A DNA stretch of 64,000 nucleotides from an uncultured Candidatus Saccharibacteria bacterium (GCA_964596395.1 CAZQSY010000003.1:25678-89677), one strand, 5' to 3'. Counted from the first letter of the stretch, positions 8,082 through 53,000 are shown. Notes: a model not told the origin generated them from the sequence alone. A program made the numbers and translations.

Positions 8082-8159
8082 TTGGTACCTGCCTGCCGGC
8101 AGGCAGGGAACAACGCTTTCGTAAAGCGAAGGTCCTCGGTTCGAATCCGACGAGCCAAG
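8082..8159 (+). tRNA. aberrant tRNA-like sequence (possible tRNA-Thr, anticodon CGT) with the D-arm replaced by the 20-bp REP-like palindrome
   Basis: Canonical T-arm GGTTCGAATCC at 8138-8148. Anticodon hairpin ACGCT-TTCGTAA-AGCGA with one mismatch. Acceptor stem TTGGTAC/GAGCCAA is 6 of 7 paired including a G-U wobble. The D-arm position is occupied by CCTGCCTGCCGGCAGGCAGG (8088-8107), and ~6 extra nt precede the anticodon stem. This is either a non-canonical tRNA or a tRNA pseudogene disrupted by the repeat. Confidence 0.35.
8088..8107. repeat. REP-1 palindrome copy 1 (CCTGCCTGCCGGCAGGCAGG, perfect 10+10)
   Basis: Perfect 20-bp palindrome. Related copies lie at 19597, 22765 and 50064. Confidence 0.8.
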
Positions 8160-8452
8160 CTCCAGCAAAATCTATAAATAAAATTGAAACGTTCAACACC
8201 TTTCCACCTCCACAATCACCCTCAAAAAGTGATATGAGTAACGCCTACGAAAATGATTACAAAGAAATCGTTCCCATACAGACAGCTAGCGTTCCTATCG
8301 GCAACTATCTGGCGACGGTAGCGGCGGTGGCAGCGGCGATAGTTCTCAGGTTTTTTCTAATCAGAAAAATAGGGCTAAAAAGAAAAAGGCGCTAACTGCG
8401 TCACTACAATATAAAGAGTGAACATCTTTTTATTGCCCGCACACGTGCGAAC

Positions 8453-9559
8453 GTGCTAAAATTAACAGCACGAATGTGCAGGCAATTTTTCAGGGCACAA
8501 AATTTTTTGCTTGTTCTCCTTTTGTCGGGGGTCTGGTTTATCTTTGCGGGAACAAGTATCCGCTCTTCCGCGCAAGAGACAAGCACGGTCAGCACCGACA
8601 CCGCTGAAATAATTCCGCAGGACGAGACGCCCGCAAGCGCGGAAGAAAATCCTCCTCCAGATGAGACGAGTGCCGTAAGCGGCGATAATGCTGAACCAAT
8701 CCCGCAAAATGAAACACCTGTGACTGTGGAAGAAAATCTTTCCCCCTCTAATGAGACAAACACAACAACAAGTGGTGTTGGTACCGAACCAATCCCGCAA
8801 AATGAAACACCTGTGACTGTGGAAGAAACCGCCGTAGAGAATCCGGAGGAAACAATTTCCCCGACAACTCTTCCGCCAGAAGAAAACCCGATACCGGAAA
8901 CACCCGAAGAAGAAGCCGGCGCGGCTGATGTCCCGGGAGAACTGCCTCCCGAATCACTGCCTCCCGAATCAGACACAAACATTGTCCCGGCAGAAGAAAC
9001 AACAGAGACAGGCGCTCCCGCGGATACCGGGGGTGAAGAAACAGCCGCACCGGCAACCGAAGATCTCGAAGGAATCTTCACCGAGGAAGAACCAGAAGCG
9101 GCGCTTCCTGAAGAACTGGCGGAAGAGGTCTTACCCGAAGCACTTGTCGAGGAGCCCCCTTTCATAGCTCCTCTCGTACAGAGATTAAAAGATAGAAGAT
9201 TAGACAGGGAAATAAAAATCGACAGCGGCGCTTCTCATAAATGCGAAGTTATTGATTTTAATCTTGATGTCTCGAACCAAGACCTGGCAGTAGCCGAAAT
9301 GATACTGGACGGCGATCGGGAAAATTTTTCAAAAGAAGAACTGGAAATCGGCAACTTGCCGCCCGGCATAGATATGACGTTTTTGGGAAGCGGAGGATAC
9401 AAGTACTCGCCGACTAAAGACGAAAATTCTCTATATCTGCAGGTAACCAAAGAAGAAAACACGCTCGAGGGAAATTTTAATCTGTCAATAATATACACCG
9501 GAACAAAGGAAAACAGCGACTCGATAACTTTGTGTCAAATAAATGTGATAAATCTTTGA
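8453..9559 (+). CDS. secreted acidic low-complexity protein with an internal tandem repeat and a C-terminal globular domain
   Basis: N-terminal hydrophobic signal/anchor (FLLVLLLSGVWFIFAGTSIRSSAQE). A long E/P/T-rich region contains the duplicated peptide EPIPQNETPVTVEE. The non-repetitive C-terminal ~130 aa favours this strand over the overlapping antisense ORF. Confidence 0.55.
   Translation: MLKLTARMCRQFFRAQNFLLVLLLSGVWFIFAGTSIRSSAQETSTVSTDTAEIIPQDETPASAEENPPPDETSAVSGDNAEPIPQNETPVTVEENLSPSNETNTTTSGVGTEPIPQNETPVTVEETAVENPEETISPTTLPPEENPIPETPEEEAGAADVPGELPPESLPPESDTNIVPAEETTETGAPADTGGEETAAPATEDLEGIFTEEEPEAALPEELAEEVLPEALVEEPPFIAPLVQRLKDRRLDREIKIDSGASHKCEVIDFNLDVSNQDLAVAEMILDGDRENFSKEELEIGNLPPGIDMTFLGSGGYKYSPTKDENSLYLQVTKEENTLEGNFNLSIIYTGTKENSDSITLCQINVINL
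8693..8735 (+). repeat. 43-bp perfect direct repeat, copy 1 (GAACCAATCCCGCAAAATGAAACACCTGTGACTGTGGAAGAAA)
   Basis: Identical to 8786-8828. It encodes the duplicated peptide EPIPQNETPVTVEE in the acidic protein. Confidence 0.9.
8786..8828 (+). repeat. 43-bp perfect direct repeat, copy 2
   Basis: Identical to 8693-8735. Confidence 0.9.
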
Positions 9560-9565
9560 GTAAAA

Positions 9566-11344
9566 ATGAAAGGTAAAAAAAAATTATTTCTGAAAATATT
9601 TCTACTCGTGATTTCTTTTTCCTGCCTTTTCCTGGTTCCGAAAAAATCCGAAGCAGTCATAGCGACCAGCGGCTCGGCACAGCTCAAGACCATAACCACT
9701 GGCGACACGCTGGTTTTTGATTCTTGGACGCCAACGGCAAACATACTGACAATAGTAATGATAGCTCAAAGAGACGAATCTATTTCCGCCACTATTTCCG
9801 GCAACAACTTGACTTGGACGCAAATCCGCGACAAGGATTGCGGACGCGCGCAGTGCGGCGTGGTGGTATGGAAAGGCACCGGGGCAAGTCCGTCTACCGG
9901 CACAACGACGGTTACCATAACCGGCAACTTAAAGCCCGTGTCCGGCATTATCCAGCAATTCAGCGGTGTTGACGCGACCACGCCGGTCGAGGCAGATAAT
10001 GTTGATTCGCATGGCTCGACCGACGACGACGACATGCTGGCCTCGGTGACAACAGTAACCTCGGGCGCTTGGGCGGTAGCCTTCGGCACAAGCCGGGGTA
10101 CAAACGCATTCACTACTCCCGGCGGAGAAAACACAATCAGCATAAACCAAATAGCCGGGTCTGGCGGTGATTTGATAAGGGCGCATATGTGGTATGAGGG
10201 GCCAGTATCCACACCCGCTTCAACCCAGCTCGGCGCATTAAACGACCTCTCGGGAGCATCCGACTGGGCTGAGGTCGTCATTTCGATAAAGCCCTCCCGT
10301 TTATTCACACAATCCGCGTACCGTTTTTTCGAAAACATCGATTCAGCCACTGCCACTACCCCGATGGTGGCGCAAGATACAGCGGCCACGCTCTCGGCCG
10401 CAGGAGACGCTTTTCGCCTTAAAATGCTCTTGCACTATGACGGTCCTGATTTTCCAGCCAATGGAGAAACCTGGAAACTTCAATTCGCCGAAAAATCCGG
10501 CACCTGTGACACGGGTTTTTCGGGAGAATCATATTCAGATGTTACTGCCGCCACCGTAATAGCTTACAAAGACAATTCCACTCCGGCTGACGGCAACAAC
10601 ACGGGTGCCGACGGCGACGACCCGACGCATAGCGGCCACACCATAGTGAACGAAAATTACGAGGAATCAAACAACTTCGCAAACGCCGGTTCATACATCC
10701 CCGACGGCGCGGACGCGAAATGGGATTTTTCGCTTAAAGACAACGGTGCCACCGCAAGCACGGCCTACTGTTTTCGTGTATTAACGTCGGGCGGCTCGCA
10801 GCTTAATACTTATTCGGTGATACCGCAAATCACGACTGCTTCTTCCAGCGCGCTTACTTTCAGCATTTCCGACAACTCGGTCGGCTTCGGCACGCTCTCT
10901 ACCAGTGCCGCGCGTTACGCCACAGGGGATTTGAGCGGAAGCGCATCTGAAACACCTGCCCACACAATTATTGCGTCCACTACCGCTTCGTCCGGATATG
11001 TAATTACCGTAAACGGCTCCACACTCGCCTGCTCCGCCTGCGGGGGCGCGACTGTAAGCGCAATCGGCGGCACAGCTACCGCGTCTTCGGCGGGTACGGA
11101 ACAATTTGGCATAAACTTAGTTTACTCCGGCGGCTCGGGAACGGCATCTTCCCCTTACAACGACCAAACATCCGCTTATACTTTCGCTTTTGACACGGCA
11201 AATTTTCCCGACCAAATAGCGTCATCTTCGGGCACATCTACCGATACCACTTATTCGGTGTATTATCTTGGAAACATATCCCCCACCACCGATGCCGGGA
11301 GTTACAGCACCACGCTTACTTATATAATCACAGCCACTTTTTAA
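9566..11344 (+). CDS. large secreted T/S/G/A-rich surface protein with a WxL-like C-terminal motif
   Basis: Signal peptide MKGKKKLFLKIFLLVISFSCLFLVPKKSEA. 592 aa of beta-rich, low-charge sequence. The C-terminus '...SYSTTLTYIITATF' is shared with the next gene ('...DYTDTLTFIATANF'). Confidence 0.5.
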   Translation: MKGKKKLFLKIFLLVISFSCLFLVPKKSEAVIATSGSAQLKTITTGDTLVFDSWTPTANILTIVMIAQRDESISATISGNNLTWTQIRDKDCGRAQCGVVVWKGTGASPSTGTTTVTITGNLKPVSGIIQQFSGVDATTPVEADNVDSHGSTDDDDMLASVTTVTSGAWAVAFGTSRGTNAFTTPGGENTISINQIAGSGGDLIRAHMWYEGPVSTPASTQLGALNDLSGASDWAEVVISIKPSRLFTQSAYRFFENIDSATATTPMVAQDTAATLSAAGDAFRLKMLLHYDGPDFPANGETWKLQFAEKSGTCDTGFSGESYSDVTAATVIAYKDNSTPADGNNTGADGDDPTHSGHTIVNENYEESNNFANAGSYIPDGADAKWDFSLKDNGATASTAYCFRVLTSGGSQLNTYSVIPQITTASSSALTFSISDNSVGFGTLSTSAARYATGDLSGSASETPAHTIIASTTASSGYVITVNGSTLACSACGGATVSAIGGTATASSAGTEQFGINLVYSGGSGTASSPYNDQTSAYTFAFDTANFPDQIASSSGTSTDTTYSVYYLGNISPTTDAGSYSTTLTYIITATF

Positions 11345-11481
11345 GTACTCAAAGTTATCCACAGCCCCGCAGACAAAAATACGTTTACGCTGTTATATAA
11401 TGATATATGTTGAAGCTCGCAAGGGTGCTCATAATCAAAAGTCGCTACTTTACTAATTTATAATTTTTATGTTGCTTTTTT

Positions 11482-12657
11482 ATGAATAAAAAATCGTTTA
11501 AGTTTTGGAAGTCGTTCGTCGGCACCTGGCTCATAGCAGGTCTTTTCCTACTGACCATCGCAGGGCTCTTACCAAATAAAGCGCAAGCCGCGACACTCCT
11601 CAACATGAGCGACACTCTAAGCACTCAAAAAGCGAGCACGGTGGCGAACCACACAATCGTCTTCCGCACTCCTACCGGCGCCGCTGAAAACACCGACACC
11701 ATAACACTCACCTTCTCGGCCGACTTTACCATGAACTCGGTCGCCTTCGGCGACTTTGACCTCGCGCACTCGGCCGGTAGCCAGTCCGACTGTGCCGCCC
11801 CAACATACACAAACGAAGAAACTCTGGCAGCTAGCGCCTCGGACACCGAATGGGGTGCGGCTCTTTCCGGCCAAGTCATAACCTTCACCGCCCCGACCGA
11901 CGGCGTAGGTGCGGCAGCAATCGCGACGAATGCCTGCGTACAGATACAAATCGGTACCAATGCCACCGCGGGCGCTACCGGCGACACCCAAATCACGAAC
12001 GGCGCCGCCGATGACGATGACACGGTAGCTATCGCCGGAACCTTCGGCGATTCGGGCACTATCACGGTAGATATAATTGATGACGACCAGGTAAGCGTCT
12101 CAGCTACCGTTAACCAATCCGTGACTTTCGATATAGACGTCGGTACGGCCGGGAATGAAAACACCGACACTCCTTACGATGTGGCTTTGGGAACAATTAC
12201 CGTAACAGATACGCGCGTCTCAGGAGCGACGGACTCGGTAAACAGAATAATGATGGACTTGGATACAAACGCCACCAGCGGCGCCACAGTAACAGTTAGA
12301 AATACCAACGGCGCCAACGGTCTTGTCTCTACGGCAGTGGGAGCCGACAACATAGGCAGTGCTGACGGCGCGATAGCCGACGGCACCGAAAATTATGGTC
12401 TGTGTGTTATATCCGTAACGCAAACCACCGGAACCCTTTCAAAAGCTTCTCCTTATAACTCTGGTTCCTGCGCGGCAGACACTGAAACAAACGATATACA
12501 AGGATTAACCACTACCGGAGAAAATATTGTGACTTCTACGGCTCCGCTTGCCGGAGGCCGGGCACAAGTAGCCGTAAACGCGGCAATCAGCGGAGTCACC
12601 GTGGCCCACTCGGATTATACTGATACGCTCACCTTTATCGCTACGGCGAACTTTTAA
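11482..12657 (+). CDS. secreted surface protein, paralogous C-terminal motif (WxL-like)
   Basis: Signal peptide ...LLTIAGLLPNKAQA. 'TITVTDTRVSGATDSV' resembles the v.DtRg..GWsL region of WxL domains. The C-terminus 'YTDTLTFIATANF' resembles the terminal 'LtWtL' WxL motif, with W replaced by F/Y. Confidence 0.5.
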   Translation: MNKKSFKFWKSFVGTWLIAGLFLLTIAGLLPNKAQAATLLNMSDTLSTQKASTVANHTIVFRTPTGAAENTDTITLTFSADFTMNSVAFGDFDLAHSAGSQSDCAAPTYTNEETLAASASDTEWGAALSGQVITFTAPTDGVGAAAIATNACVQIQIGTNATAGATGDTQITNGAADDDDTVAIAGTFGDSGTITVDIIDDDQVSVSATVNQSVTFDIDVGTAGNENTDTPYDVALGTITVTDTRVSGATDSVNRIMMDLDTNATSGATVTVRNTNGANGLVSTAVGADNIGSADGAIADGTENYGLCVISVTQTTGTLSKASPYNSGSCAADTETNDIQGLTTTGENIVTSTAPLAGGRAQVAVNAAISGVTVAHSDYTDTLTFIATANF

Positions 12658-12723
12658 CCGAAAAAGAATAATTAGAACCGGCAGAAGCTCCCGAAGCTCG
12701 ACAATATCGAGAAAGAACACATT

Positions 12724-13731
12724 ATGCGAAAACTTTTTTTCATAATATTCACCCTGGCGGCACTTTTTACGGCGGGTTCTGTATCGGCGCTTACCGTATC
12801 TCCCGTACGTATAGAAATCGCGGGCGACCCGGGAACGACCCTTTCGGGTGCAATAGAGCTTTTTAACGAACAAAATAACCAGGGAGAAAAAGTTTTCTAT
12901 ACTTCTTTTGAAAATTTTGAACCATCTGGCGACACGGGAGCTCCGCGCTTCATTGGGGCAAAAGACGGTCTGGCTACCTGGATAAAATCAGAGGGTAAAG
13001 TCGTTCTCGATTCGGGTGTACGAGTCACCGTCCCTTATTCTATCGATATACCCAAAGAAGCAGAGCCGGGCGGATATTTCGCGGCAATCTTTTTCGGCAC
13101 GCAAGACCCGGGGTCCCAAGGAGAGGGCCAGGTTTCGGTGGGCGGCAAAATCGGGGTACTCATGATGCTTCGGGTTACCGGCGACATAGAAGAAAATGCC
13201 GGACTTTTGGATTTTTCAGCCAAAGAAAAAAAGAGGTTTTTCACTTCCCTGCCCGTCACTTTTACCTATAGAATAAACAACGCGGGCGGAGACAGAATTA
13301 TGCCGAGCGGGGAAATAAAAATCAAAAACACTTTTCAATTTAAAACCGCCGAGCTTCCGGCCAATAAGAACTCGGGAAACATTTTACCGGGAAGCTCCAG
13401 AAAATACGAAGTAACCTGGGGAGAAGAAACGGCAGGGACCTCTGCCGAAGAAAACGCGGAAATTTCAAAGATAAAAAAATATTGGCAGGATTTCTTAGGG
13501 AAAACAAAAAACCAGCTGAAGGCGTTTCATTTTGGATGGTATAGGGCAGAACTAGACCTATCTTGGAGCGCCGAGAAACAAACCGCCAATGCTTCTTATA
13601 GTTTCTTCATTATACCTTGGCAGATTCTCTTGTTGGCCGGTATCGTTTTGCTCATACTGCTCAATCTGGGTGGAAGAATAATAAGAAGATACAACCGATG
13701 GATTATTGCTAAGGCAAGCGCGCAAAGATGA
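12724..13731 (+). CDS. cell-surface protein with signal peptide, two beta-sandwich-like domains and a C-terminal TM anchor (DUF916/DUF3324-like architecture)
   Basis: Signal peptide ...AGSVSALTVSPVRIEI..., where 'VSPV' resembles the start of DUF916. A C-terminal TM segment IIPWQILLLAGIVLLILLNLGG is followed by the basic tail RIIRRYNRW. Same strand as, and directly after, the two WxL-like genes. Confidence 0.4.
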   Translation: MRKLFFIIFTLAALFTAGSVSALTVSPVRIEIAGDPGTTLSGAIELFNEQNNQGEKVFYTSFENFEPSGDTGAPRFIGAKDGLATWIKSEGKVVLDSGVRVTVPYSIDIPKEAEPGGYFAAIFFGTQDPGSQGEGQVSVGGKIGVLMMLRVTGDIEENAGLLDFSAKEKKRFFTSLPVTFTYRINNAGGDRIMPSGEIKIKNTFQFKTAELPANKNSGNILPGSSRKYEVTWGEETAGTSAEENAEISKIKKYWQDFLGKTKNQLKAFHFGWYRAELDLSWSAEKQTANASYSFFIIPWQILLLAGIVLLILLNLGGRIIRRYNRWIIAKASAQR

Positions 13732-14250: not shown

Positions 14251-14259
14251 AATTTTTAA

Positions 14260-15159: not shown

Positions 15160-15163
15160 ACAC

Positions 15164-19267: not shown

Positions 19268-19564
19268 CTACATACTGCTTCCTTGCCCGCCGTCTTGCTT
19301 TGGCTCACAAACCCCGTCTTTGCATTTTTCACACCCGCAACCAAATATCGTCATCACACCCGCCACACCGACAAGCAAATAAACCAGCGCTTCAACAAGC
19401 GGAACCGAACCGAGCAGCATACCGACTATGTTCCATCCGCTGTAACTTCCAAGGAACATACCGAGGCCAACTAGACCCCAGTTTACGGCACCTACGACAA
19501 CCAGCACCTTGACCAAAACGCTCACGGTGCAACCCCACTTGCCGCAGCAATATCCTTTACACAT
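19268..19564 (-). CDS. DUF378-family small membrane protein with Cys-rich termini
   Basis: 'VVGAVNWGLVGLGMF...WNIVGMLLG' matches the DUF378 pattern. Cys clusters MCKGYCCGKWGC and CGCEKCKDGVC lie at the termini. Confidence 0.55.
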   Translation of the reverse strand: MCKGYCCGKWGCTVSVLVKVLVVVGAVNWGLVGLGMFLGSYSGWNIVGMLLGSVPLVEALVYLLVGVAGVMTIFGCGCEKCKDGVCEPKQDGGQGSSM

Positions 19565-19596
19565 AGTTTTTTGTTTTTAATTATTTATAATTTTCA

Positions 19597-19616
19597 ACCT
19601 GCCTGCCGACAGGCAG
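19597..19616. repeat. REP-1 palindrome copy 2 (CCTGCCTGCCGACAGGCAGG, 1 substitution)
   Basis: Intergenic, about 100 bp upstream of the RAYT-like transposase gene. Confidence 0.75.
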
Positions 19617-19663
19617 GGACCCTTCACGGTACATATTATACCACGACTTCGTTTTCTTTAGTT

Positions 19664-19690
19664 AAAATGAGCAAGGACTCCCCTTGCTCA
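19664..19690 (+). repeat. 27-bp hairpin repeat, left copy (AAAATGAGCAAGGACTCCCCTTGCTCA; 9-bp stem, 5-nt loop)
   Basis: Identical to 20394-20420, in direct orientation, flanking the Y1 transposase gene. Confidence 0.85.
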
Positions 19691-19719
19691 AGATGGGAGT
19701 AAAATTATATAATTGAAGG

Positions 19720-20394
19720 ATGTATAGAAAAACCCCATTTGCAGAAAATGAGCATTATCACATCTATGACAGAGGAGTGGAAAAGCGCAAAATTTTTCTT
19801 TCAAAAAAAGATTATCAGCGCTTTGTGGCCCTCCTGTACATTATGAATCAGGACGAGTCGTTCAGAATGGACAATTTTTTGCGCGAAGAAGAAAACAAGC
19901 TAGGCAATATATTCAACGAAGAAAGGAGCAAAACCCTGGTCGCCGTTTTAGGTTATTGCCTAATGCCAAACCATTTTCATTTGATTCTATATGAAAAGAG
20001 GGAAGGGGGTATAAGTAAATTTATGGCCAAACTTTTAACCGCTTACTCAATGTACTTCAACACAAAATATGAAAGAAGCGGCCCGCTCTTTACCCGACCT
20101 TTCAGGTCAGAATATATAGATAACGAACCGCAATTTATGTATATATTCTCGTATGTGCACTTGAATCCTCTTTCAGTCTTAGACAGAAAGTGGAAAGAAA
20201 ATGGCATAAAAAACAGAGACGAAGCGGAGAAATTTCTGGAAAATTATGATTACTCCAGTTATCAGGACTTCCTTAGTGCAGAAAGAGTAGAATCAAAAAT
20301 CGTTGACTTTTCTCTTGTGCCGAAATATATAAAAAACATGAGAATGGATTTAGACACGCAAGAAAAAAACCTGAGCATAAATGACGAGAGGTGA
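19720..20394 (+). CDS. HuH Y1 transposase of the IS200-like / REP-associated tyrosine transposase (RAYT, PF01797-like) family
   Basis: 'YHIYDRGVEKRKIFLSKKDYQRFVALL' matches the 'YHVtqRG..r..IF.ddeD...fl.lL' pattern. 'GYCLMPNHFHLIL' is the HuH motif. 'FMYIFSYVHLNPL' places the catalytic Tyr in the Y-x-x-x-NP context. At 224 aa it is longer than classic IS200 TnpA. Confidence 0.7.
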   Translation: MYRKTPFAENEHYHIYDRGVEKRKIFLSKKDYQRFVALLYIMNQDESFRMDNFLREEENKLGNIFNEERSKTLVAVLGYCLMPNHFHLILYEKREGGISKFMAKLLTAYSMYFNTKYERSGPLFTRPFRSEYIDNEPQFMYIFSYVHLNPLSVLDRKWKENGIKNRDEAEKFLENYDYSSYQDFLSAERVESKIVDFSLVPKYIKNMRMDLDTQEKNLSINDER

Positions 20395-20420
20395 AAATGA
20401 GCAAGGACTCCCCTTGCTCA
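20394..20420 (+). repeat. 27-bp hairpin repeat, right copy
   Basis: Identical to 19664-19690. Confidence 0.85.
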
Positions 20421-21628: not shown

Positions 21629-23488
21629 TTAAACGACCGTTTTTAATTCTTGTATCTTTTTGTTTATCTCGTTTATTTCCCGCAAAATTTTCTCCGCTCC
21701 TTCTTTCTCTGCCCTTGATTCCATTCCGTGCAGCGCGTTCATTTTGGATGCAAGCGTCTCCCTCAAATGTTCTAAAACAAAATTCCGCGCGAGCTCGTCA
21801 AAATCTTTTCTGATGTCGACATCCCCTCCATAAAAAACCTCCGCTTCAAAAATTAAATCACCTTCGTTCTCCTGCGTACCCGAAAAAATTTCTTCTGCCT
21901 TGCATCCTAGCATATCCGAAATTTTATCAAGCACCTCCTCTACATTTATGGCCGGTTCGGGTAATTTTTTTTGCCACAAAATTATTCCCAAAATCCTTTG
22001 CTTGATATAGTCCTTTCTGGAGGGAAAATTTTTCGTTTCTCCGGTTCCGCTCCTTCCCCCCGTTTCGGCCGAAGAACCTTTTTCTTTTTCCAACCCGGCT
22101 AAATCCTCACGCAAAGCGCTTTCGCTGATTCCCGACAAGTCAGCGATTTTTTTGATGAACACGTCTCTTTCGATACGGCTCGGAAGTTCCAGAACGTACG
22201 GCAATACTTTTTCCCTTATTCCCCGGCCGGCCTTACGCGCATCTTTCCCGCTTTCCTTAAGTACCGCCCGCAAAACGAATTCTATTATGTGACAAGAATC
22301 GCGCACGGCTTTCTTCCAAGCATCCGGCCCTAATTTAGAAATGACGTCTGCCGGGTCCATACCTTCGGGTATAGAGGCAATTTTCACATCCATCCCCAAA
22401 GATAGCGCGATTCTGCCGGCCCGCATAGCGGCACCAAAACCGGCCTTATCCGCATCAAAGGAAAGAATAATATTCTGCGAAAGCCGCCCCAGAAGCCCTA
22501 GTCCCGAAACAGACTTTTCTCGGGAACGTTCTTCTTCCGAGGAAATTTTTGAAATCGTGGATTCCGACAAGGCAGTGCCCGAAGTGGCCACGGTATTTCT
22601 GAAGCCCGCCTGATGTGAAAGCAGCAAGTCCATCTGTCCTTCGACCATAATCGAGAAATTATTTCTGCGTATTGAATCCTTGGCTTTGTCTAAACCGTAC
22701 AAAACCGAGGACTTGTTGAAAATCGGCGTTTCCGGACTGTTCAGATATTTGGCCTGACTTATCACCTGCCTGCCGCCTGCCTGTCCGGTAGACAGGGCAG
22801 GCAGGTCGTCTTTAAAAATCCTGCCCGAAAAAGCTATTACTCGGCCGCTCGAATCGGAAATCGGGAAAACAATTCGCCCGCGAAACCTGTCGTAAAAACC
22901 CGAGCCGTTGTCAGCTTTTTTGATAAGCCCCGCTTGCTCCATTTCTTTCTCAGAAAAACCGAGGGTCTTCAGATGAGAAAAAAGCGCCCGCCATTCTTCC
23001 TGCGCCCAACCCAGTTTGAATTCCTTTATAGTGGAGTCCTTAAGTCCTCTATCTCTCAAGTATTTAAGCGCCTCTTCGTTTTGCCAAAGATTTTTTTCAA
23101 AGAACCCGGCCGATTCCAAAACCGCACGGTATAGTCTATCTTTTTCGCCTTCTTTTTCCTGATTCCATTCACGAAGAGATATGCCGGCACGGTCAGCGAG
23201 CACTTTGAGCGCTCCCCGAAAATCAAGCCCCTCAAACTCTTCCACAAAAGAAAATATATCCCCCTTCGCCCCGCAGCCGAAACAATAGTAGCTCCCGCGG
23301 TCGGGCGACACGAAGAAAGAAGGAGTTTTTTCGCTGTGAAAGGGACACCTTGCTTTTAGGTTCTTGCCCGCTTTTTCCAATTTCAGATATGAAGAAACCA
23401 CTTCTTCTATAGAGAGCCTCTCCTTGATTTGTTCCGCAGGAGAAATCATCGCTTTTTTTGTTTGGCGAAAAAAATTTCCGTCAGCCAC
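21629..23488 (-). CDS. dnaG: DNA primase
   Basis: CHC2 zinc finger '[30 protein letters not shown]'. TOPRIM motifs '[10 protein letters not shown]' and '[11 protein letters not shown]'. '[11 protein letters not shown]' is also present. There is a 16-aa insertion encoded by the REP-like palindrome (see findings). Confidence 0.9.
22765..22805. repeat. REP-1 palindrome copy 3, expanded imperfect variant (CCTGCCTGCCGCCTGCCTGTCCGGTAGACAGGGCAGGCAGG), in-frame inside dnaG
   Basis: Read on the minus strand it encodes [16 protein letters not shown] within DnaG. Confidence 0.75.
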
Positions 23489-42759: not shown

Positions 42760-44898
<2,139 letters not shown>

Positions 44899-45012
44899 TT
44901 AGTTAAAATAAATCAAAAAATAAAGGCAAAAATCACTTTCTGCTTGTACATAGTATAACAAAAACCAGCGCAAAAAACCAGCTTACCCCGTCGGTAGGCG
45001 GGGTCAAAATTT

Positions 45013-45235
45013 GAATAAAAAAATCCCCGAACGACACTGTGTGCCGTCCGGGGAGGACCGGACCTGGGGTGGCTATTTCTTATCGCCACCCCCAAGGTCT
45101 GGCCAATCCTTGGGTTCATCGAAGGGCCGCATAGGCCCTCCTTTCTTTTAGTTGCCGCTATCCGCGGTAGGACTCCCTTCTTGACTTTCAAAGGGAGAAA
45201 ATTGTGCTCAATAAATTGAATCCAATTTTCTCCCC
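45013..45235 (-). ncRNA. candidate structured RNA / regulatory leader upstream of gyrB with alternative antiterminator and terminator hairpins
   Basis: On the minus strand there is a series of perfect hairpins: GAGAAAATT/AATTTTCTC, GGGCC/GGCCC, CCCAAGG/CCTTGGG, GGTGGC/GCCACC. Then GTCCGG-TCCTCC-CCGGAC overlaps the terminator CCCCGGACGG...CGTTCGGGG plus U-run (45013-45052). No coding potential. Identity unknown. Confidence 0.3.
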
Positions 45236-45275
45236 TCAAAAAGAAAGATAAAGAACAAATTGAAAGAACTAAAAC

Positions 45276-45313
45276 AAAAACCAGCCCGTTTTCTAGAGGG
45301 CTGGTTTTTGTTT
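45276..45313. terminator. bidirectional intrinsic terminator (A5-CCAGCCC-gttttctaga-GGGCTGG-T5)
   Basis: Perfect 7-bp GC-rich stem flanked by an A-run and a T-run. On the minus strand it lies downstream of pheT. Confidence 0.55.
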
Positions 45314-45484
45314 TGTAAGTTTCTTTTTTGTGGAGATTATTTACAACGCAAGAATCAGACCTCTAGACCTTTTCGGCCAGACCTTAATAAAGAGGCGGTT
45401 ATTAATATATGCGTGTAAAACTTTATTCACAGTTTTTATGTATATCAAACTTGTTTACCCAAGTAAAGTGCCACCTGTGGATAA

Positions 45485-45553
45485 CCCGCACACTTACTTT
45501 TTTGATGCGCCCTGGGCGCATTGTAATCAATATCAAGAAAGTAAGTGTGCGGG
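45485..45553. repeat. 16-bp perfect inverted repeat (CCCGCACACTTACTTT...AAAGTAAGTGTGCGGG) enclosing an inner 8-bp palindrome (ATGCGCCC tg GGGCGCAT), 4 nt past the pheT stop
   Basis: Read directly from the sequence. It forms a long stem-loop in the pheT 3' UTR. Confidence 0.7.
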
Positions 45554-45557
45554 ATAA

Positions 45558-47450
45558 CTACCTCACCCGCCAGCCAGAGTTTTCCTCAAGCTTTGCTTTA
45601 ATTTTTTCCATCACGGCGTTGACTTCTTGGTCGGTAAGCGTGCGTTCGTACGATTGAAATACCAGCCGAAAGGCATAAGAGGTCTTATCCCCTTTTGTGA
45701 AAGAATCAAAAAGCGTCGGGCCTTTGATTACCATTTCTCCCGTATTTTCTTTGATAACTTTTTCTACTTTTGAAACTTCCACTCCTGACGGCACCCACAG
45801 CGCGATATCGCGAGCGATGAAAGGAAACAAAGACCAGGGCCTAAAAGCCGAACCCGTATGCTTTTCTGAATGGTCTGGTTGAGCCCGCTCTTCCAAAGAA
45901 TCTTGCGCGGGCGACCCGAGGACCTGAAGAAAAGCATCGGGTGAGGCGTCCTTACAAAATTCATCAAGCGTCATTTCTTTTATTCCCTTTTTATCGCCAT
46001 AAGCGACGCGTGCCTCTTCTTTGTCTTTCAAAAACACAGTTCCGATTTCAAAAATTTTAATTTCCTCCGCATCCAGAAGCGGAGCATTGAGCATGTTCAG
46101 CTTCAGACTCTCTTTCAGTCCGTCCGCCAAATTCGTCCGCAAATGTTTTTTGTCCGAGGCCGAAGCTAGCACTTCAACATCACCCTTATCTCTGAAAACA
46201 TAAGTCATCACTTCCGAGTACCCTTCTTCAAGCAGTTTGTTTCTTGCCCAACAAATCTTGGCGTAAGTATTATTTGCTTTCGGCTCGAATTCTATCTTCG
46301 GGATTTCTCCTTTTACCCTGTCGTACCCCAAAATCCTCCCAATTTCTTCTGCCATGTCTTCTTCAATCACCAAATCAAGCCGGAGAGGAGGGACGATAAT
46401 TTCAAACAAAACCCCCTCTGCCCCCTTATCAGGGGAAACTATTTTGTAAGGAAAATTATATCTCTTCAAGATTCCTTCGATCTCTTCCTTGGAAACTTCC
46501 AACCCCAGAATTTTTGAAATCTTTTCCGCGCTGAAAGTAAGTTTGTGTTCCGGCTGTTTCTTGGGATAAACATCCACGATATCCTCGAAAACCGCCCCGG
46601 GGCACATTTCGTAAATCAGAGCCGAGAGTTCTCGCATTCCATATTCGGCAAGCTCGGGAGACAAGTCGTTTTCGAAACGCTTGCGGGCGTCAGTAAAAAT
46701 GTTTTGCGTTTGCGCCGTCTTGCGCACCGATACCGGGTCAAAATTCGCTACTTCCAAAATTACATCCGAGGTACTTTCATCAACCTCGGCAATTTTTCCG
46801 CCTTTGATGCCGGCCAGCGCCAACACTCTTTCACCATCGGCAATCACCATGTTGGCGGGGCCGAGCTTTAATTCTTTGTTGTCTAGAGTTGTCATATCCT
46901 CCCCTTCCCGCGCCTGGCGCACTACCAATTTTTCTTTTACTTTTTTCAAATCAAAAACGTGCGTGGGCTGGCCGCAATTAAACATCACTAAATTCGCGGC
47001 ATCTACCATATTGTTTATGCTCCGCTGACCTATAGCTTCAAGATGCGCTTTTACCCAGTCGGGCGAAGGGCCGACTTTCACTCCCCTCACAATCCGCCCC
47101 ATGTACCGGCGGCATTTATCGCTCGCGATTTCTATCTTCAAGCCGGTCGGCCTGGATTCGGGCAATTTGTATTTCGGCGTCGGGTCGTTAAATTTTATAT
47201 CAAGCAGCGAAGCGAGCTCGCGCGCCACGCCCAAGTGAGAAAGCAAATCATGCGCCCGGTTCGGCAGAATGTTTATGTCAAAAATCACGTCGCCATCTTC
47301 TCTTTTTTCAACGCTTTCAACTTCGCACAAGTGATAAGTGAAAACATCCCGTAGTTTATCCACGTCGGGAACTCCCGCCTGTCCCCGATTATTCAGGAGG
47401 GCGGGCAGGTCCGGTATATACCATTTGAGCCAATTGTAGGAGATTTTCAT
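45558..47450 (-). CDS. pheT: phenylalanyl-tRNA synthetase beta subunit (short form)
   Basis: B3/4 and B5 domains plus the C-terminal class-II-like core. 630 aa. It follows pheS with a 3-nt gap. Confidence 0.9.
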   Translation of the reverse strand: MKISYNWLKWYIPDLPALLNNRGQAGVPDVDKLRDVFTYHLCEVESVEKREDGDVIFDINILPNRAHDLLSHLGVARELASLLDIKFNDPTPKYKLPESRPTGLKIEIASDKCRRYMGRIVRGVKVGPSPDWVKAHLEAIGQRSINNMVDAANLVMFNCGQPTHVFDLKKVKEKLVVRQAREGEDMTTLDNKELKLGPANMVIADGERVLALAGIKGGKIAEVDESTSDVILEVANFDPVSVRKTAQTQNIFTDARKRFENDLSPELAEYGMRELSALIYEMCPGAVFEDIVDVYPKKQPEHKLTFSAEKISKILGLEVSKEEIEGILKRYNFPYKIVSPDKGAEGVLFEIIVPPLRLDLVIEEDMAEEIGRILGYDRVKGEIPKIEFEPKANNTYAKICWARNKLLEEGYSEVMTYVFRDKGDVEVLASASDKKHLRTNLADGLKESLKLNMLNAPLLDAEEIKIFEIGTVFLKDKEEARVAYGDKKGIKEMTLDEFCKDASPDAFLQVLGSPAQDSLEERAQPDHSEKHTGSAFRPWSLFPFIARDIALWVPSGVEVSKVEKVIKENTGEMVIKGPTLFDSFTKGDKTSYAFRLVFQSYERTLTDQEVNAVMEKIKAKLEENSGWRVR

Positions 47451-47453
47451 AAA

Positions 47454-48170: not shown

Positions 48171-48176
48171 TTCTTG

Positions 48177-48383
48177 CTAATTGGGAGACCAGGTTAGTTC
48201 GTAGTCGAAACCTTCCAGATGTTTTAAAGTGTAAACGCCCTTAACGCCATCAACCATAAAAGTACTTGTTTTGTACGTATGTGCCCTGTCAAAAAGATAT
48301 TCGTGCTCTTTTAAATAGCCCAGCCCCTTTTCTGATTTCCCATCATTCTTAACGCTTCTATCGCCTATTTTTTCCCAATCCAT
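48177..48383 (-). CDS. hypothetical small protein (68 aa) immediately upstream of pheS
   Basis: ORF with a 6-nt gap to pheS and no recognisable motif. Confidence 0.3.
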   Translation of the reverse strand: MDWEKIGDRSVKNDGKSEKGLGYLKEHEYLFDRAHTYKTSTFMVDGVKGVYTLKHLEGFDYELTWSPN

Positions 48384-48440
48384 AAATTTTAAAATTATTA
48401 AAACAAATAATGCATTTATTATACAAAAAACGGAAAATTT

Positions 48441-48449
48441 TGCTAGAAT
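48441..48449 (+). promoter_or_regulatory. extended -10 element TGCTAGAAT placed 6 nt upstream of a small ORF (leaderless arrangement)
   Basis: The element is identical to the rpsB promoter -10 (tgctagaat). The ATG at 48456 sits at the predicted transcription start site. Confidence 0.35.
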
Positions 48450-48455
48450 GAGGGA

Positions 48456-48551
48456 ATGGAGAAAAACTACCGGCTTTTGATTCTTCTGGCGATTGTGTTG
48501 CTTTCAATAGGCCTCTATCTCGGCTGGCTCGACAACGGGCCGGGGTTCTAA
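48456..48551 (+). CDS. putative 31-aa hydrophobic micropeptide MEKNYRLLILLAIVLLSIGLYLGWLDNGPGF
   Basis: Below the ORF-track size cutoff. A single TM helix follows a leaderless-type promoter. Speculative. Confidence 0.25.
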   Translation: MEKNYRLLILLAIVLLSIGLYLGWLDNGPGF

Positions 48552-48616
48552 CCTTCGAGATATCATTATTTTGTTATAAACTTTGCGATAGCAAAGATAA
48601 TAACAAGAGAAGGTGG

Positions 48617-49093
48617 TCATTTATATCCTTTTGCCAGCTTAAAGGTCTTCACGCTATCCTTCAGTTTTATCTTTTCCAAATAATCCAGAAACTCTTGCGG
48701 TAGAGGCGAAGGTCCGACCCAGACACTTTTTTGTATCATTGTGTATTTAAATTTTTTCAGGTGCCAACGCAACCATTCCCTCTCAGCTTTCTTAGCTTCA
48801 GGCACATCAAACATAAGCATGAGGTTTTTGGGCGCGTTTTTCTCAAACATAAAATCAAATTGTCGTAAGGAATCAATTTTCCTCCTAATGTAATCTCTGC
48901 CCCTTCTGGTCACACACAAACCTTCGTCACTCTCTCCCACTAATCCATCTTTGACTAGATTTGACATGGTGGCACGCAAAGAATTGGATGGGTACTTCCT
49001 AAATTTTGGCAAACCAAGGAAGTTCACGCGCATTCCCTTATAGTTAAGAGAATCCCTGCTAAGTTCCTTCAAAATATCCAGAATGATTGTCAT
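48617..49093 (-). CDS. PaaX-like winged-helix transcriptional regulator (short)
   Basis: N-terminal wHTH-like 'LRATMSNLVKDGLV'. C-terminal 'LMLMFDVPEAKKAEREWLRWHLKKFKYTMIQKSVWVGPSP' resembles the PaaX C-terminal pattern (W.G.W.lv.ydvPe..r..LR..L...G...L..SVW..P). Confidence 0.4.
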   Translation of the reverse strand: MTIILDILKELSRDSLNYKGMRVNFLGLPKFRKYPSNSLRATMSNLVKDGLVGESDEGLCVTRRGRDYIRRKIDSLRQFDFMFEKNAPKNLMLMFDVPEAKKAEREWLRWHLKKFKYTMIQKSVWVGPSPLPQEFLDYLEKIKLKDSVKTFKLAKGYK

Positions 49094-49191
49094 GTTTTTA
49101 TAGTATATTAAATTGTTAGAAATTCTGCTATAGCAGAAAATATAACAATATAGACGACGTGGTCGAGTGAATGAAAGTTATAAAAAAAGAA

Positions 49192-50010
49192 CTAAGCGAT
49201 AAGTTCTCTGATAATATCGGCTTTGTGCACAACGTCGTTATACCCTATACGCATAGTTTTTATTATATGTTCCCTAGTATTGTCTAAGGTACCCGAAAAT
49301 AACCTTACACCGGGCTTTATAATTAAAATATTTTTATCTTTATAGTTATGTCTCGTCTCCCGAGTATAAGACCACACTTTTTCCCTGACGTATTTTCCCA
49401 AAAACAAGGAAAAAAATCGCAGAAGATTTTTAGAGAAGAAATCATGATGTGAATTATCAAAAGCAATAATTACTTCGGCTCCCTCCTGTTTTGCCTTCTT
49501 GATATTCACATCCAAGGGAGCCTCAATGGCGCCGTCTATATAAAGGTTTCTTTTTATTCTCACTAATTTGTTGTAAACAACGGGAGCGGCGTTTGAGGCC
49601 CGCAATGCTTCAAATATATCTACGTCATCCTTGTTGCTCACGTACTCTATCTTCTTATTATTAACGTTCGTCACGGAAACAAAAAACTTTATTTTTGACT
49701 CTTTAACCGACCGAGTATCAAGGGGGTCCTGTTTCTTGAAAATTTCGTCTATCAGATAATCAATATCCATAATTTCTCCCAACCTCCAGAATGAAACAAA
49801 TTTTTTCGAAGGGAGAAGATTCTGCCAAATATTTTTTATTGAACCGTATTGCCTGGCGACGTAATACGCGAGCGTACCGGTACTGCCGGAACTGCCTACG
49901 ACCATGTACGGGTCGGTGAAATTCAATTTTTCCACGAGCGCTAAAATAGCACCGGTAAAATAGGCGCAGGACATACCTCCTTCCGAACCGATAATGGCAA
50001 CTTTCTTCAT
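49192..50010 (-). CDS. patatin-like phospholipase
   Basis: Oxyanion 'VAIIGSEGGMSCAYFTG' (GxGxxG). Nucleophile elbow 'GSSGS' (GxSxG). Catalytic Asp region 'YIDGAI'. The likely start is MKKVAII at 50010, whose ATG overlaps the helicase TGA stop in an ATGA arrangement. The track start is 50043. Confidence 0.8.
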   Translation of the reverse strand: MKKVAIIGSEGGMSCAYFTGAILALVEKLNFTDPYMVVGSSGSTGTLAYYVARQYGSIKNIWQNLLPSKKFVSFWRLGEIMDIDYLIDEIFKKQDPLDTRSVKESKIKFFVSVTNVNNKKIEYVSNKDDVDIFEALRASNAAPVVYNKLVRIKRNLYIDGAIEAPLDVNIKKAKQEGAEVIIAFDNSHHDFFSKNLLRFFSLFLGKYVREKVWSYTRETRHNYKDKNILIIKPGVRLFSGTLDNTREHIIKTMRIGYNDVVHKADIIRELIA

Positions 50011-53000
50011 GCGGTTTTGTAGATTCTCTTCATCATCTCGCAATATTCACAGGAATTTGTCACCTGTCTGCCGGCAGGCAGGAAAGATTTATAATCGCAA
50101 GGCCTGTCGAGCCATTTGCCCGTCTTGACTAAGGTTTCATAATCTTTTATGTCCTGCAGAAGCAGGTCAAACCGGTCTCGCCCGATGGTGGTGCTGTAAA
50201 CGCTTTCTTTCCCGTCTTTGGCTTCCAAAAATTCCAGACGGGATTCATTCACACTCACTCGGCCTTTCGAGCTACGCTCTAGAAGAAAAGAATACATCGC
50301 GAGCTGGCGCATGTAATCGCTCATGCGGCCTCTCGCCCCGTCTGTAAAGGCGGGGTCTTCATTTATTTTCTCAATATCCGACTTTTTGCGCACACTGCCC
50401 GTCTTGAAATCGGTCACCCGCACATCCCTCTCGCCTAATTTCTCGACCAAATCTATCTTTCCGTAAATACTCAAGCGGGGAAACTCCGCGGCTCGCACGG
50501 ACACGCTTTTCTCGGTTTCCCTGTCGGGGTTTATCTCGGCGAATCTTTCTTTCACCCACCTCGAAATTATTCTAAGCAAACCCTTCTCGCCTTGCGCGAT
50601 TTCCTCCAAATCTTTTCCAGAAGGCGGTTTTCTGAATTTTAGAATCTTTTCCATAGCCGCGTGCACTCTGGACCCGAATTCAAGGGTCTCATTTTTCGGC
50701 TCGGGCAGTTTGAGCAGATTGCGGAAATACCATTTTCTGGGACATTCAAAAAAATTATTCAGGAGCGAGACCGAAACATTCACCTCGGCGTATTCTTTCG
50801 AAACCATCTCTAGAAGTTTAGGGATTGTATCTTGGACGTCGTTTTTCTCGCCAGAGGCGACATAATTTTTCGGGTCGTCCGATAAAATTTTCTCTTCAGT
50901 TTCGCTGAAGGTTAATTTTTCAAAAACACTGTCTGCTTGCCCCGCGTTGGCGGCGGCAAGCTCTGATACGATTTTGGCCAACTCCTGCTCCCGACCCGAA
51001 TAAGAGAACCTGGGGTAAGAAAGTCGGCAAAATCTCTTGGCTCTGGTGATGGCCACGTAGAGTTCTCTCTTGGCCGCCGCTTCGTCTTTTTCTTCCACCT
51101 TCAGGGCAACTGATTCGGGCAATCTGAAATTCCGCCGCCGGCCTTTCATGAGCGAACCTTCGTCTAAGTGGGCAACCCAGACAAAATCAAATTCCAAACC
51201 CTTCGAAGCGTGCAGGGTTATGACTTTTACTCCTTCGTCGCTTTTAAACGAGGCGAGCGGAAAATCCTCTCCGTATTCGCGCAACCTTTCAATGAAAGCG
51301 ATAAATCCCGGGAGAGAATTCTTTTCCTGGCGGTTTTCCTTTTCCGCAAACGAAAGAGCGAGATGCAAGACGCTGCGGACTACTTCTATTCTCTCCAAAA
51401 GTTCCGTGTGGCCCTTGGCGGTCTTCAACAAAACCTCGTCGCCGACTTTTTGCACAAATTCCTGCATATCTAGCGAAGACGAAAAAGAAACCAACCGGAG
51501 CAATTTTTCTCCCCATTCTTTTATCTCCCGGGTTCCGCTCGAACCGAACAAGTCCTCTCTTTGGCCGGCCATATCCTGCAAGCTTACTGTCTTGCCTCTT
51601 TCTTGGTACAGATACGAGTGCGCGGCGAGACGGGGTATCCCCGATACCGGGTCTAAGATGCTTTCGGCGAGCGGTACGGGGTCGTGAATATTCGCGCAAA
51701 TTTTGAAAACTCGAAGCAAAGCAGAAAATTCCGCCGTTGCAAAAAGCGACAGGCCCCGCGCCCCGGCCACTTTTATGCCCAAACCTCCGAGAACCCGCAT
51801 GGCCTCGCGGGCCTGCGTATTCTTCGGCACCAAGATGGCGCAATCGCTTTCTTTCACTTCCTTGCTCAGCAGTTTTTCTTTGAGCTCAATTCCGCAAGCG
51901 ATAACCTCGTCGCGCGGATAGTCGCATTCAAAAAGCTTCAGGTTGTGATTTTCTTTGAGGGTAGCGACCAATTTTTCCTCTGAGAAAGAACTCGACAGAA
52001 GCTTATCGGCGGCAGCGAGTATTTTTTGAGTGGAGCGATAATTCTGGGTCAGAAATATAACTTTTGCTTTGCCGAAAATGTCTTTGAATTCTTCAAAATA
52101 AGAGAACTTCGCCCCGCCGAAAGCGTAGATGAGCTGACGGTCGTCGCCGACGGCAAAAATGTTGGGCTTTTCTACTTTCTGCCAAATCGTTTTCAGCAGA
52201 GCGTTTTGCGCGCCACTCGAATCCTGATGTTCGTCAACCAAAACATACAAATATCTTACCTGTATTTCGGCCCGGGCATTTTCGGATTCTTCTAAAATTT
52301 GGAGCGCGTATTTTATCTGGTCGTCATAATCCAAGAGCCCCTTTTCTTGCTTAAGCTTTTCGTACATATCGTAGAAGGACACGATTTCTTTGGTGCGCTC
52401 CAGACCTTCTATCTTTTCCAAATATTCTTTTTTCATTTTTCCTTTCGTTTCTCCCCGGCTCGAAATGCTCTCGGGGTCGTTTTGTATCGCCTGGATTTCT
52501 TTTTCAATTTCATCCAGAAAATCCCGTGGCGACAATCTTTCGCGCTTCAAAAGCGAGACAAGCGAGCGCAGTTCTTTGAAATGCCTGCCGATGTCGCCCC
52601 TGGGACGGAGGTACTGCCATTCGTTCTGGCGCAAAATCTGGTCGCATAAAGATACGGCCTCGGTATCCTCTAAAATTCGCGGAGCAAAAGGCAGAGAAAG
52701 AACGTGAAAAAATTCATCAATGATTTTCCCGCAAAAACTGTGAAAAGTAAGCACTTCTACCCGCCCGCCTTCTTCGCCTATATACTTCTGTAATCGCTCG
52801 CGCATGGCGCGAACGGCCGAATTGGTGAAAGTAAGACATAAGATAGAATCTGCGCCGACATCCGTTTTTTTTAAAATATTGCCTATGCGCAAGGCCAAAA
52901 TCTGGGTCTTGCCCGTACCTGGCCCGGCCACCACCATGACCGGACCGTCTATCGTGTCTACCGCCTCTTTTTGAGCGGGATTTAATTTGCGATATTCGTC

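Follow-up and report, generated by a model that had tools for sequence, protein, structure and literature searches.

The 64,000-nt stretch of DNA analysed here in full, referred to below as the window (CAZQSY010000003.1:25678-89677 of assembly GCA_964596395.1, from an uncultured Candidatus Saccharibacteria bacterium), harbors dispersed copies of a 20-nt palindrome, CCTGCCTGCCGGCAGGCAGG. Two copies are found within protein-coding genes, namely dnaG (21629-23488, - strand) and the gene for a UvrD/PD-(D/E)XK helicase-nuclease (50007-53060, - strand), a third is found within a tRNA-like remnant, and a fourth is intergenic. By the homologues of its DnaG, helicase and GyrB proteins, the host is placed in Patescibacteria, class Paceibacteria or nearby. 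In order along the window, the copies, their hosts and one adjoining element are as follows.

8076-8160, + strand: decayed tRNA-Thr(CGT)-like remnant, read directly from the sequence, that hosts copy 1.
8088-8107, unstranded: copy 1, the perfect 20-mer, at the D-loop position GGTA^GAAC of the remnant.
19598-19617, unstranded: copy 2, CCTGCCTGCCGACAGGCAGG, with the loop variant GACA, intergenic.
19667-20420, + strand: IS200-like unit, separate from the palindrome family, consisting of a Y1 (HUH) transposase-like gene (19720-20394) between two hairpins.
22765-22805, - strand: copy 3, in dnaG, an outer 20-mer with a nested 21-nt hairpin and a translation of 13 residues.
44176-44246, - strand: probable diverged and expanded member in gyrB, within an insert of about 22 aa, with its hairpin at 44208-44246.
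47372-47409, - strand: possible diverged member at the N-terminus of pheT, CCTGCCCGCC...CAGGCGGGAG, translated as LPALLNNRGQAG and forming a hairpin.
50063-50082, - strand: copy 4, CCTGTCTGCCGGCAGGCAGG, in the helicase-nuclease gene, translated as LPAGRQ.

The palindrome is a true repeat family, as an initial annotation of this DNA had proposed on the basis of four copies. At up to three mismatches the 20-mer has three matches in the window (the exact copy 1 and the one-mismatch copies 2 and 4), compared with none in 100 dinucleotide-preserving shuffles, and a gapped search recovers the expanded, nested copy 3. With the likely members in gyrB and pheT, the total comes to four certain and two likely copies in 64 kb. 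The contexts originally assigned to the four copies (the D-arm position of a tRNA-like gene, an intergenic site beside the Y1 gene, dnaG and the helicase-nuclease gene) are as described, and the coordinates given for copies 1 and 3 were right, while those of the other two copies were off by one base. The copies lie 3-27 kb apart, and the flanks of all four have in common only TTNNNA^. There are no inverted doublets in the window of the type found in REPINs, which are built from repetitive extragenic palindromic (REP) sequences; elsewhere, among the matches listed, two copies lie within 100-400 nt of each other at a few loci. Copy 2 is bordered by an open reading frame (ORF) of DUF378 type (19271-19576, - strand) and by the IS200-like unit, the Y1_Tnp gene lying 102 nt downstream of the palindrome, and no copy is present at this position in the syntenic loci L122, L125 and L126.

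A degenerate version of the 20-mer is present in at least 120 8-kb tiles of species-representative genomes, against a chance expectation of about 9 (a rough estimate that assumes uniform base composition). Grouped by record title, and counted among the tiles listed, Bacteroidota account for about 40 tiles, including cultured Winogradskyella, Gaetbulibacter, Flavobacterium, Flagellimonas, Longitalea and Aquiflexum, and Patescibacteria for about 29, including a curated complete WWE3 genome. Proteobacteria, Desulfobacterota and Bdellovibrionota make up about 20, Planctomycetota and the Planctomycetes-Verrucomicrobia-Chlamydiae (PVC) group 8, Omnitrophota 7 and Nitrospirota 3; a further 6 come from Actinomycetota, Chloroflexi, Cyanobacteria and Ignavibacteria (one each) and Bacillota (two), and 7 from records titled as unclassified "bacterium". 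The 20-mer is also carried by 63 stretches of viral contigs, with five to six copies in some contigs of 19-30 kb, and three control palindromes of the same composition and design had no matches in the viral contigs. BLAST searches of cultured phages and plasmids returned no full-length match to the 20-mer, and the papers searched contained no mention of the 20-mer, of the peptides LPAGRQ, PACRQAG or CLPAGR, or of REPs in Patescibacteria.

One potential concern is that a sequence of low complexity such as this one, with its CCTG repeats, could recur by chance similarity, be ancestral coding sequence, or stem from an artefact of sequencing or assembly, as many of the carriers are metagenome-assembled genomes (MAGs). 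Such an explanation is hardly credible, because shuffles and control palindromes yield no matches, and because cultured isolates and complete long-read chromosomes carry the element as well (Winogradskyella, Gaetbulibacter, Flavobacterium, Flagellimonas and the curated WWE3 genome). Furthermore, the same DnaG insert is found in independent samples from ENA, JGI, Logan and NCBI, the genes that carry the element keep an open frame, and most of their orthologues are without the insert. No gene family is linked to the palindrome over the 183 loci in which ORFs within 2.5 kb of it were clustered, the largest family being ABC transporters at 6 of the 183 loci, with ParB, integrases and capsids also among the top families.

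The architecture of the element was deduced from its variants. In a scan of viral contigs in which positions were left free, positions 9 and 16 covary, with C-G in 42 copies, T-A in 30, A-T in 4, T-G in 4 and no pairing in 4, and the usual single changes are at positions 12-13, within the loop (GGTA in 14 copies, and also GACA). The covariation supports a structure CCTG + CCTGCC-GGCA-GGCAGG, that is, a tag followed by a 6-bp stem with a 4-nt loop, and disfavors a symmetric 10+10 stem; the perfect 10+10 palindrome would be a by-product of a tag that repeats the start of the stem. Minority variants retain the 10+10 symmetry, as in CCTGCCTACCGGTAGGCAGG of locus L233. Among 54 distinct copies of the asymmetric variant, G precedes the tag in 65% and A in 22%, and A almost never follows the element. 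The 20-mer has no stop codon in any of its six frames.

Copies of the element are also found within one another. Self-nested copies, among the matches listed, are exactly 40 nt long (L028 and L068), and in copy 3 of the window the outer 20-mer is split 11|9 (22765-22775 and 22797-22805) by a 21-nt variant hairpin, CCTGCCTGTCCGGTAGACAGG, at 22776-22796. Head-to-tail pairs of differing hairpin variants were seen in L233 (319-358), L263 (722-760) and L108 (7309-7350), for instance CCTGCCTGTCGGCAGACAGG with CCTGCCTACCGGTAGGCAGG directly adjoining it downstream, and small arrays of the element therefore exist.

New copies arise by exact insertion of 20 nt without duplication of the target site. This is seen in tRNA genes and tRNA remnants, where the canonical tRNA sequence is unbroken on both sides of the element, and 20 nt have therefore been inserted without a duplication. 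The insertions are located in the D loop (GGTA^GAGC, in the window and L260), likewise in the D arm (TTAGA^GC, in L023 and L059, which with L260 share the spot of copy 1), in the T loop (GGTTC^AAGTCC, in L039 and L047) and in the variable loop (AGG^TC, in L245). Excision of the 20 nt from L245 restores an intact tRNA-Met as called by ARAGORN, and is the only clean restoration, L050 giving an odd 86-nt call. The L245 copy (2284-2303, in a viral contig) lies in the variable loop of an otherwise intact tRNA-Met; it would form a long extra arm resembling that of class II tRNAs, and the tRNA may still work. A miniature inverted-repeat transposable element of the DDE type, with terminal inverted repeats and a target-site duplication, does not fit, given the uninterrupted tRNA sequence on both sides of the 20 nt and the tRNA-Met restored by excision. 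Direct repeats of at least 6 nt flank 8% of copies versus 1% of controls, an excess probably due to the abundance of repeats in intergenic DNA, given that no duplication is seen in the tRNA cases.

Most of the remaining tRNA hosts have decayed or are partial, and adjoin an intact tRNA of the same kind (L001, L027, L050 and the window). Judged from its sequence, the host of copy 1 is such a remnant. A D arm, an anticodon arm whose loop is TTCGTAA, a T arm (GGTTCGAATCC) and, on the 3' side, an acceptor strand can be traced at 8076-8160, with mismatches in every stem, no proper 5' acceptor strand and the D-loop insertion GCTCAGTTGGTA^GAAC, and the 5' end of the remnant overlaps the 3' end of tRNA-Thr(TGT) at 8005-8079. 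Neither ARAGORN nor Rfam calls a tRNA at 8076-8160, with or without the 20 nt, and in six loci the palindrome-bearing fragments had no tRNA match in Rfam at a permissive threshold. Partial or decayed tRNA copies, often a 5' half, with the palindrome inside and an intact tRNA of the same or similar kind just downstream, were also noted at L001 (1990-2220), L027 (4220-4390), L050 (3600-3790), L023 (4020-4165) and L059 (2100-2480). In all, about a dozen of some 210 copies are in or against tRNA genes or tRNA remnants; tRNA genes make up, as a rough figure, a small share of a genome, and this proportion is far above that share.

Similar sites are found outside of tRNA genes. In 13% of copies the element is enclosed by a perfect stem of 6 bp or more, versus 3.3% of control positions, and as a general rule targeting of hairpin loops is not borne out, the overall rank tests being not significant. 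We read these data as a preference, in a subset of copies, for unpaired loops of foldable DNA, the loop-type sites being the D, variable and T loops of tRNA genes and remnants, the centers of other inverted repeats and the center of the element itself. Most copies at genome loci are intergenic or at gene ends, with flanks that are unrelated between loci.

A majority of copies in intergenic regions or at gene ends, base-for-base conservation across phyla and compensatory changes that preserve the stem are what might be expected of a cis-acting signal kept by its function, be it a site for a conserved DNA- or RNA-binding protein, a gyrase or nucleoid site, an RNA-stabilizing or terminating stem, or a primase or replication signal, and REPs of model bacteria do have such secondary roles (PMC3733652). 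We nonetheless consider selection for a signal improbable as the explanation of the family, because copies also occur in protein-coding loops, in tRNA remnants and inside one another, their position and orientation with respect to genes not being fixed, and because orthologous sites are usually empty. Moreover, the window copies have no T-run 3' of the stem, as terminators need, and the decayed copies of L122 and L125 show no constraint at the DnaG site.

The copies in coding sequences are insertions, as had been supposed, since a check against 120 orthologues each found most to be without the DnaG and helicase segments. At the empty site in DnaG, about 90 of 120 orthologues read DDGKS-AKY, with the usual FSGRIF plus 15 residues compared to a 22-residue segment in the window, and solved primases have only two or three residues at the insertion point. 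The dnaG gene of L121 has an un-nested 20-mer at the same site as copy 3, and differs from the empty gene of L289 (77% identical) by the 20-mer and by one extra base 9 nt downstream (GACAAGTCAGGCA versus GAAAAGTC-GGCC); VTSQ is therefore what the old D-K-S codons yield when read in a shifted frame. The window gene has the same arrangement (GATAAGTCAGGCC), with the extra base in TCAGGCC 9 nt downstream. In L123, three copies are found in a single dnaG, each adding seven codons relative to the empty L288 (81% amino-acid identity), and one of these copies has an extra base inside the tag (CCTTG). Thus, in at least one genic copy a small indel nearby restores the reading frame.

In the helicase-nuclease, 118 of 120 orthologues lack the insert and read RPC-NYNSY-GK-NTE-CEYC, compared to SF-LPAGRQV-TNS-C in the window, and the insert falls between two Cys of a C...C-x2-C motif that is conserved and that, judging from PD-(D/E)XK nucleases in general, presumably binds an iron-sulfur cluster. 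The net gain of 15 nt fits the insertion of 20 nt and the loss of 5 nt nearby, and the V-T-N that follows the insert is consistent with old G/D-K codons read out of frame. The dnaG and helicase copies of the window both read L-P-A-...-G-R-Q-V. An expanded form is present at this same position in the helicase of P0139/L127, its right arm extended by three tandem GGCAGGCGGGT units.

Two further genes may have acquired diverged members. A half-site search located the insert of about 22 aa in GyrB (21 residues read), which is absent in all 120 orthologues (IIDAR-EWDNKKG) and whose DNA folds as GCCTGCC-CGCC...GGCG-AT-GGCAGGC; its CCTGCC/GGCAGG arms and LP...GQA frame make it a probable member of the family. 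One GyrB orthologue has LPTGQAG a few residues away, matching the reading of the 21-nt inner variant in the window dnaG. The hairpin in pheT is possibly a diverged member.

The Cys-free LPAGRQ frame is used by seven of the eight genic copies verified against orthologues, and by most clearly internal genic copies at the genome loci, among the matches listed. Because the element is 20 nt long, its insertion shifts the frame, and the in-frame state is nothing inherent in the element but a result of what passes selection. The initial annotation had described proliferation of the palindrome in frame, which holds insofar as one frame is favored, and fails as an inherent property, since 20 nt shift the frame and the allele of L121 has a separate +1 base.

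The DnaG loop has also been invaded by other sequences. Unrelated in-frame inserts at the same loop, before KYLNSPET, were observed in other Paceibacteria (P0003, P0012, P0013, P0015, P0020, P0048, P0050, P0078, P0092, P0097 and P0102). The insert of L126 (10640-10700) consists of two strong hairpins (-35 kcal/mol) encoding VPTPKGVGTPTLQNAIVG, and other inserts read NRQDLL... and PARPPGWSGAGG. The loop is evidently tolerant, and a hot spot for hairpin insertions of several families. When residues 1-460 of DnaG are modelled with AlphaFold, the predicted local distance difference test score (pLDDT) of the insert region is about 30-40, and all of residues 228-283 are of low confidence, so the model is uninformative on the loop. 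A second DnaG insert, of 17 residues, was noted at 22480-22540 (residues ~320-337); it is absent from syntenic orthologues and solved primases, and its DNA has some hairpin potential (GTTCCCGAGAAAAGTCTGTTTCGGGAC). For window proteins with orthologues in L122, L124, L125 and L126, insertions of at least 5 aa were found in DnaG only. In the syntenic stretch of L122 (3202-6395), rpoB is called as two overlapping ORFs of 803 and 272 aa, for which a frameshift, an assembly error or a further insertion is possible.

The position of copy 2 next to a transposase-like gene suggests another origin of the family, in which the palindrome is the REP of a neighboring REP-associated tyrosine transposase (RAYT) that binds, cleaves and spreads the 20-mer as a REP/RAYT or REPIN system, an active form of which the initial annotation had suggested on the basis of the co-occurrence. 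Copy 2 is 102 nt upstream of a gene whose protein matches Pfam Y1_Tnp at 34.6 bits (cut-off 23) and NCBIfam REP_Tyr_transpos at 39.2 bits, below the cut-off of 80. The layout of tag and hairpin is that of REPs, and the lack of a target duplication fits HUH chemistry. Set against this, the Y1 gene is bracketed by a different pair of hairpins, identical and in direct orientation (ATGAGCAAGGACTCCCCTTGCTCA, 19667-19690 and 20397-20420). The same holds for its homologues, which were examined in 80 metagenome loci (39-76% identity, 339 kb). Where both flanks are available, a hairpin of the form xxxxAAGG-loop-CCTTxxxx is found about 50 nt upstream of the gene and again at the stop codon, with stems that covary between loci, and the direct pair is present in 28 of the 57 testable loci, with inverted matches in more. 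The CCTGCC 20-mer is in none of the 80 homologue loci, and a homologue of the Y1 gene is in just 1 of 120 palindrome loci, among the matches listed. The tag of the element, CCTG, is furthermore neither of the two by which REPs have been sorted into families, GTAG and CGTC (Di Nocera et al. 2013, PMC3733652), and the window has no inverted doublets. On these grounds the neighboring RAYT was rejected as the mobilizer, the proposed REP/RAYT link is not upheld, and it is very improbable that the palindrome belongs to that gene.

The Y1 gene is part of a separate IS200-like unit, whose adjacency to copy 2 is best read as a coincidence. A Y1 HUH gene between two same-strand subterminal hairpins, the arrangement by which IS200/IS605 elements are defined, is present at 19667-20420, as a single observed copy. 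In the syntenic loci L122, L125 and L126, no Y1 gene lies between rpoD and the DUF378 gene. Units of this type form a minimal IS200-like family that is frequent in groundwater and sediment metagenomes, with 588 of 600 candidate stretches confirmed.

Other repeats were noted in the window. A GC-rich intergenic repeat, GA(A/G)ATGT(A/C)AACCCCGTCGC..., is present in two copies (291-337 and 53530-53576) that are 79% identical and have internal hairpins, with inverted repeats also at 53526-53605. A 59-nt unit is repeated in three tandem copies about 90 nt apart at 8590-8828, within an ORF (8453-9559, with no Pfam match) that encodes a repetitive protein adjoining the tRNA locus. An ORF of 1202 aa (58838-62446) has an internal duplication of 198 nt with 72% identity (59876-60073 and 60797-60994). 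Directly downstream of the pheT ORF is a 30-nt inverted repeat, 87% complementary with a 25-nt spacer (45477-45561), close to a terminator-like hairpin at 45271-45314.

Taken together, we consider it probable, with some reserve, that the family is a very small (20 nt), non-autonomous and selfish REP-like hairpin repeat that is copied in trans. The lack of any linked gene implies that the copying agent works in trans, and copying would proceed via single-stranded DNA, either by a cut-and-join enzyme of the HUH type or by replicative template switching. With no stop codon in six frames, a gene could therefore survive a hit that falls in a tolerant loop, provided that its frame is restored. Its product would then include LPAGRQ together with a short out-of-frame stretch (VTS in DnaG, VTN in the helicase), the Cys-free LPAGRQ frame presumably being favored by selection, and viral contigs may help to carry the element between lineages.

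A number of observations weigh against this interpretation. No mobilizing enzyme was identified and no transposition event was observed, and there is no strong target motif, only base preferences beside the asymmetric variant. The orientation of that variant is not linked to local GC skew (p = 0.42), in what is a weak test. REPs normally vary from one species to the next and are passed on vertically; an identical 20-mer across phyla is atypical for them, and might rather indicate that a function or a host enzyme is conserved. A frameshifting insertion in an essential single-copy gene should be lethal unless compensation is simultaneous. Lastly, filled DnaG alleles are scattered among empty ones in a neighbor-joining tree, where P0095 has empty neighbors at a distance of 0.27 and P0041 is the sister of P0049. 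Unless the tree is unreliable, recombination has carried the filled allele from lineage to lineage, and spread at the DnaG site may be by transfer or recombination of alleles, not by repeated transposition.

The DnaG alleles raise the question of whether the element has any dedicated mobility at all. New copies could arise by templated copying, through template switching or ectopic gene conversion, and be distributed by transfer and recombination of filled alleles, a homing-like process without an enzyme of its own. Filled alleles of the window, L121, L122, L124 and L125 share the site and the compensating extra base, and yet scatter in the tree; alleles of LPAGRQ type and the decayed LSAGRQV, LSADSGQI and PSTSSGQA all have the same frame-shifted tail, which indicates one origin. 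The window and L121 have almost the same insert, yet most synonymous sites in the flanking codons differ, so that either the insert was recently refreshed or the DNA itself is constrained, a pattern that fits recent conversion or transfer. The lack of both a target duplication and a linked gene, and the expansion of the L127 arm by tandem slippage (GGCAGGCGGGT, three times), are also in keeping with templated copying. What it leaves unexplained is why this sequence and not the control palindromes spans phyla, how clean 20-nt insertions arose in tRNA loops without flanking homology, and why the variants are discrete and covary; the neighbor-joining tree, moreover, is weakly resolved. We regard templated copying without dedicated mobility as rather unlikely for the family as a whole.

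If the family is indeed a REP-like repeat copied in trans, a broader proposal can be entertained, which we advance tentatively as a possibility short of an expectation. The element would be the smallest mobile DNA described, a 20-nt tag and hairpin that is moved in trans by a widespread single-strand DNA enzyme or by the replication machinery, that lands in unpaired loops of folded DNA (those of tRNA genes, of other hairpins and its own) without target duplication and crosses phyla partly on phages, and that repeatedly remodels primase, gyrase B and a helicase-nuclease via a frameshift and a compensating indel.

These observations have a number of consequences. One REP-like hairpin is base-identical across at least 10 phyla and viral contigs, with a tag of a new kind, CCTG, and no linked transposase, and therefore provides a clean handle on how REP-type hairpins are copied; the gene content of carriers versus non-carriers could point to the copying enzyme. 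Insertion of 20 nt with a compensating indel is also a route by which essential proteins obtain new loops, consisting of LPAGRQ and a few out-of-frame residues. Of practical concern, tRNA callers fail on such hairpins, which may also lead to misannotated genes in MAGs of Bacteroidota and the candidate phyla radiation (CPR).

Among known systems, REPs are the closest in form, as they too are stem-loops, 20-40 nt in length, that end on one side in a conserved tetranucleotide and are mostly located in intergenic regions or at gene ends, with a minority in the same kinds of genes. Unlike REPs, the element has CCTG as its tag, is at the very small end of the size range with 20 nt, occurs as singletons in place of dimers or REPINs, and inserts into tRNA loops and its own center; and unlike REPs, which are species-specific, one sequence is found across many phyla and viral contigs. 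The view that ordinary REPs are extragenic, on which the initial annotation had relied, does not stand, as intragenic, translated REPs, a minority of the total, have been reported from several species, often within genes for DNA replication and repair (UvrD, RecBCD, DnaE) and within those for tRNA synthetases (PMC3733652).

The likeness to Rickettsia palindromic elements (RPEs) drawn in that annotation is borne out with respect to behavior, since the palindrome is present in essential genes and translated, as is already known for REPs too (PMC3733652). As with RPEs, an extra peptide is introduced in frame at tolerant sites of essential proteins, with no linked transposase. The CGTC-tagged REPs, which include the small Rickettsia elements RPE-4 and RPE-6, are likewise without a dedicated transposase (PMC3733652). 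Unlike RPEs, the element is 20 nt long, shifts the frame and needs a compensating indel, and its hosts are Patescibacteria, Bacteroidota and others, RPEs being confined to Rickettsia; the likeness is one of behavior, with no similarity in sequence sought or seen. For scale, RPE-1 is about 100-150 bp long and encodes tens of residues.

REPINs are described as inverted doublets that are vertically inherited with the single-copy RAYT gene that they flank. The element resembles the REPIN/RAYT system in its layout of hairpin and tag, and in the lack of a target duplication, as an HUH enzyme would give, and differs in having no doublets, in a local RAYT-like gene that is flanked by other hairpins, and in a distribution that crosses phyla. 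With IS200/IS605 elements, which transpose as single strands, and their small palindromic derivatives it shares a hairpin and the absence of terminal inverted repeats and target duplications. In contrast to IS200/IS605 elements, which insert 3' of a fixed target of 4-5 nt and have two different end hairpins, the 20-mer has a single hairpin and a weak preference for flanking bases.

Palindromes that spread in organelles offer a more distant parallel. Yeast mitochondria have GC-cluster palindromes. Coding palindromes have been described in nematomorph mitochondria (PMC6649704). Like the element, mitochondrial palindromes are short GC-rich hairpins that spread within a genome, and they may lie in coding regions and be translated; they are organellar and of other sequences and sizes, and no relationship is implied. 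Intragenic REP behavior was thus already known, and what is new here is a CCTG-tagged, REP-like hairpin with an unusually wide host range.

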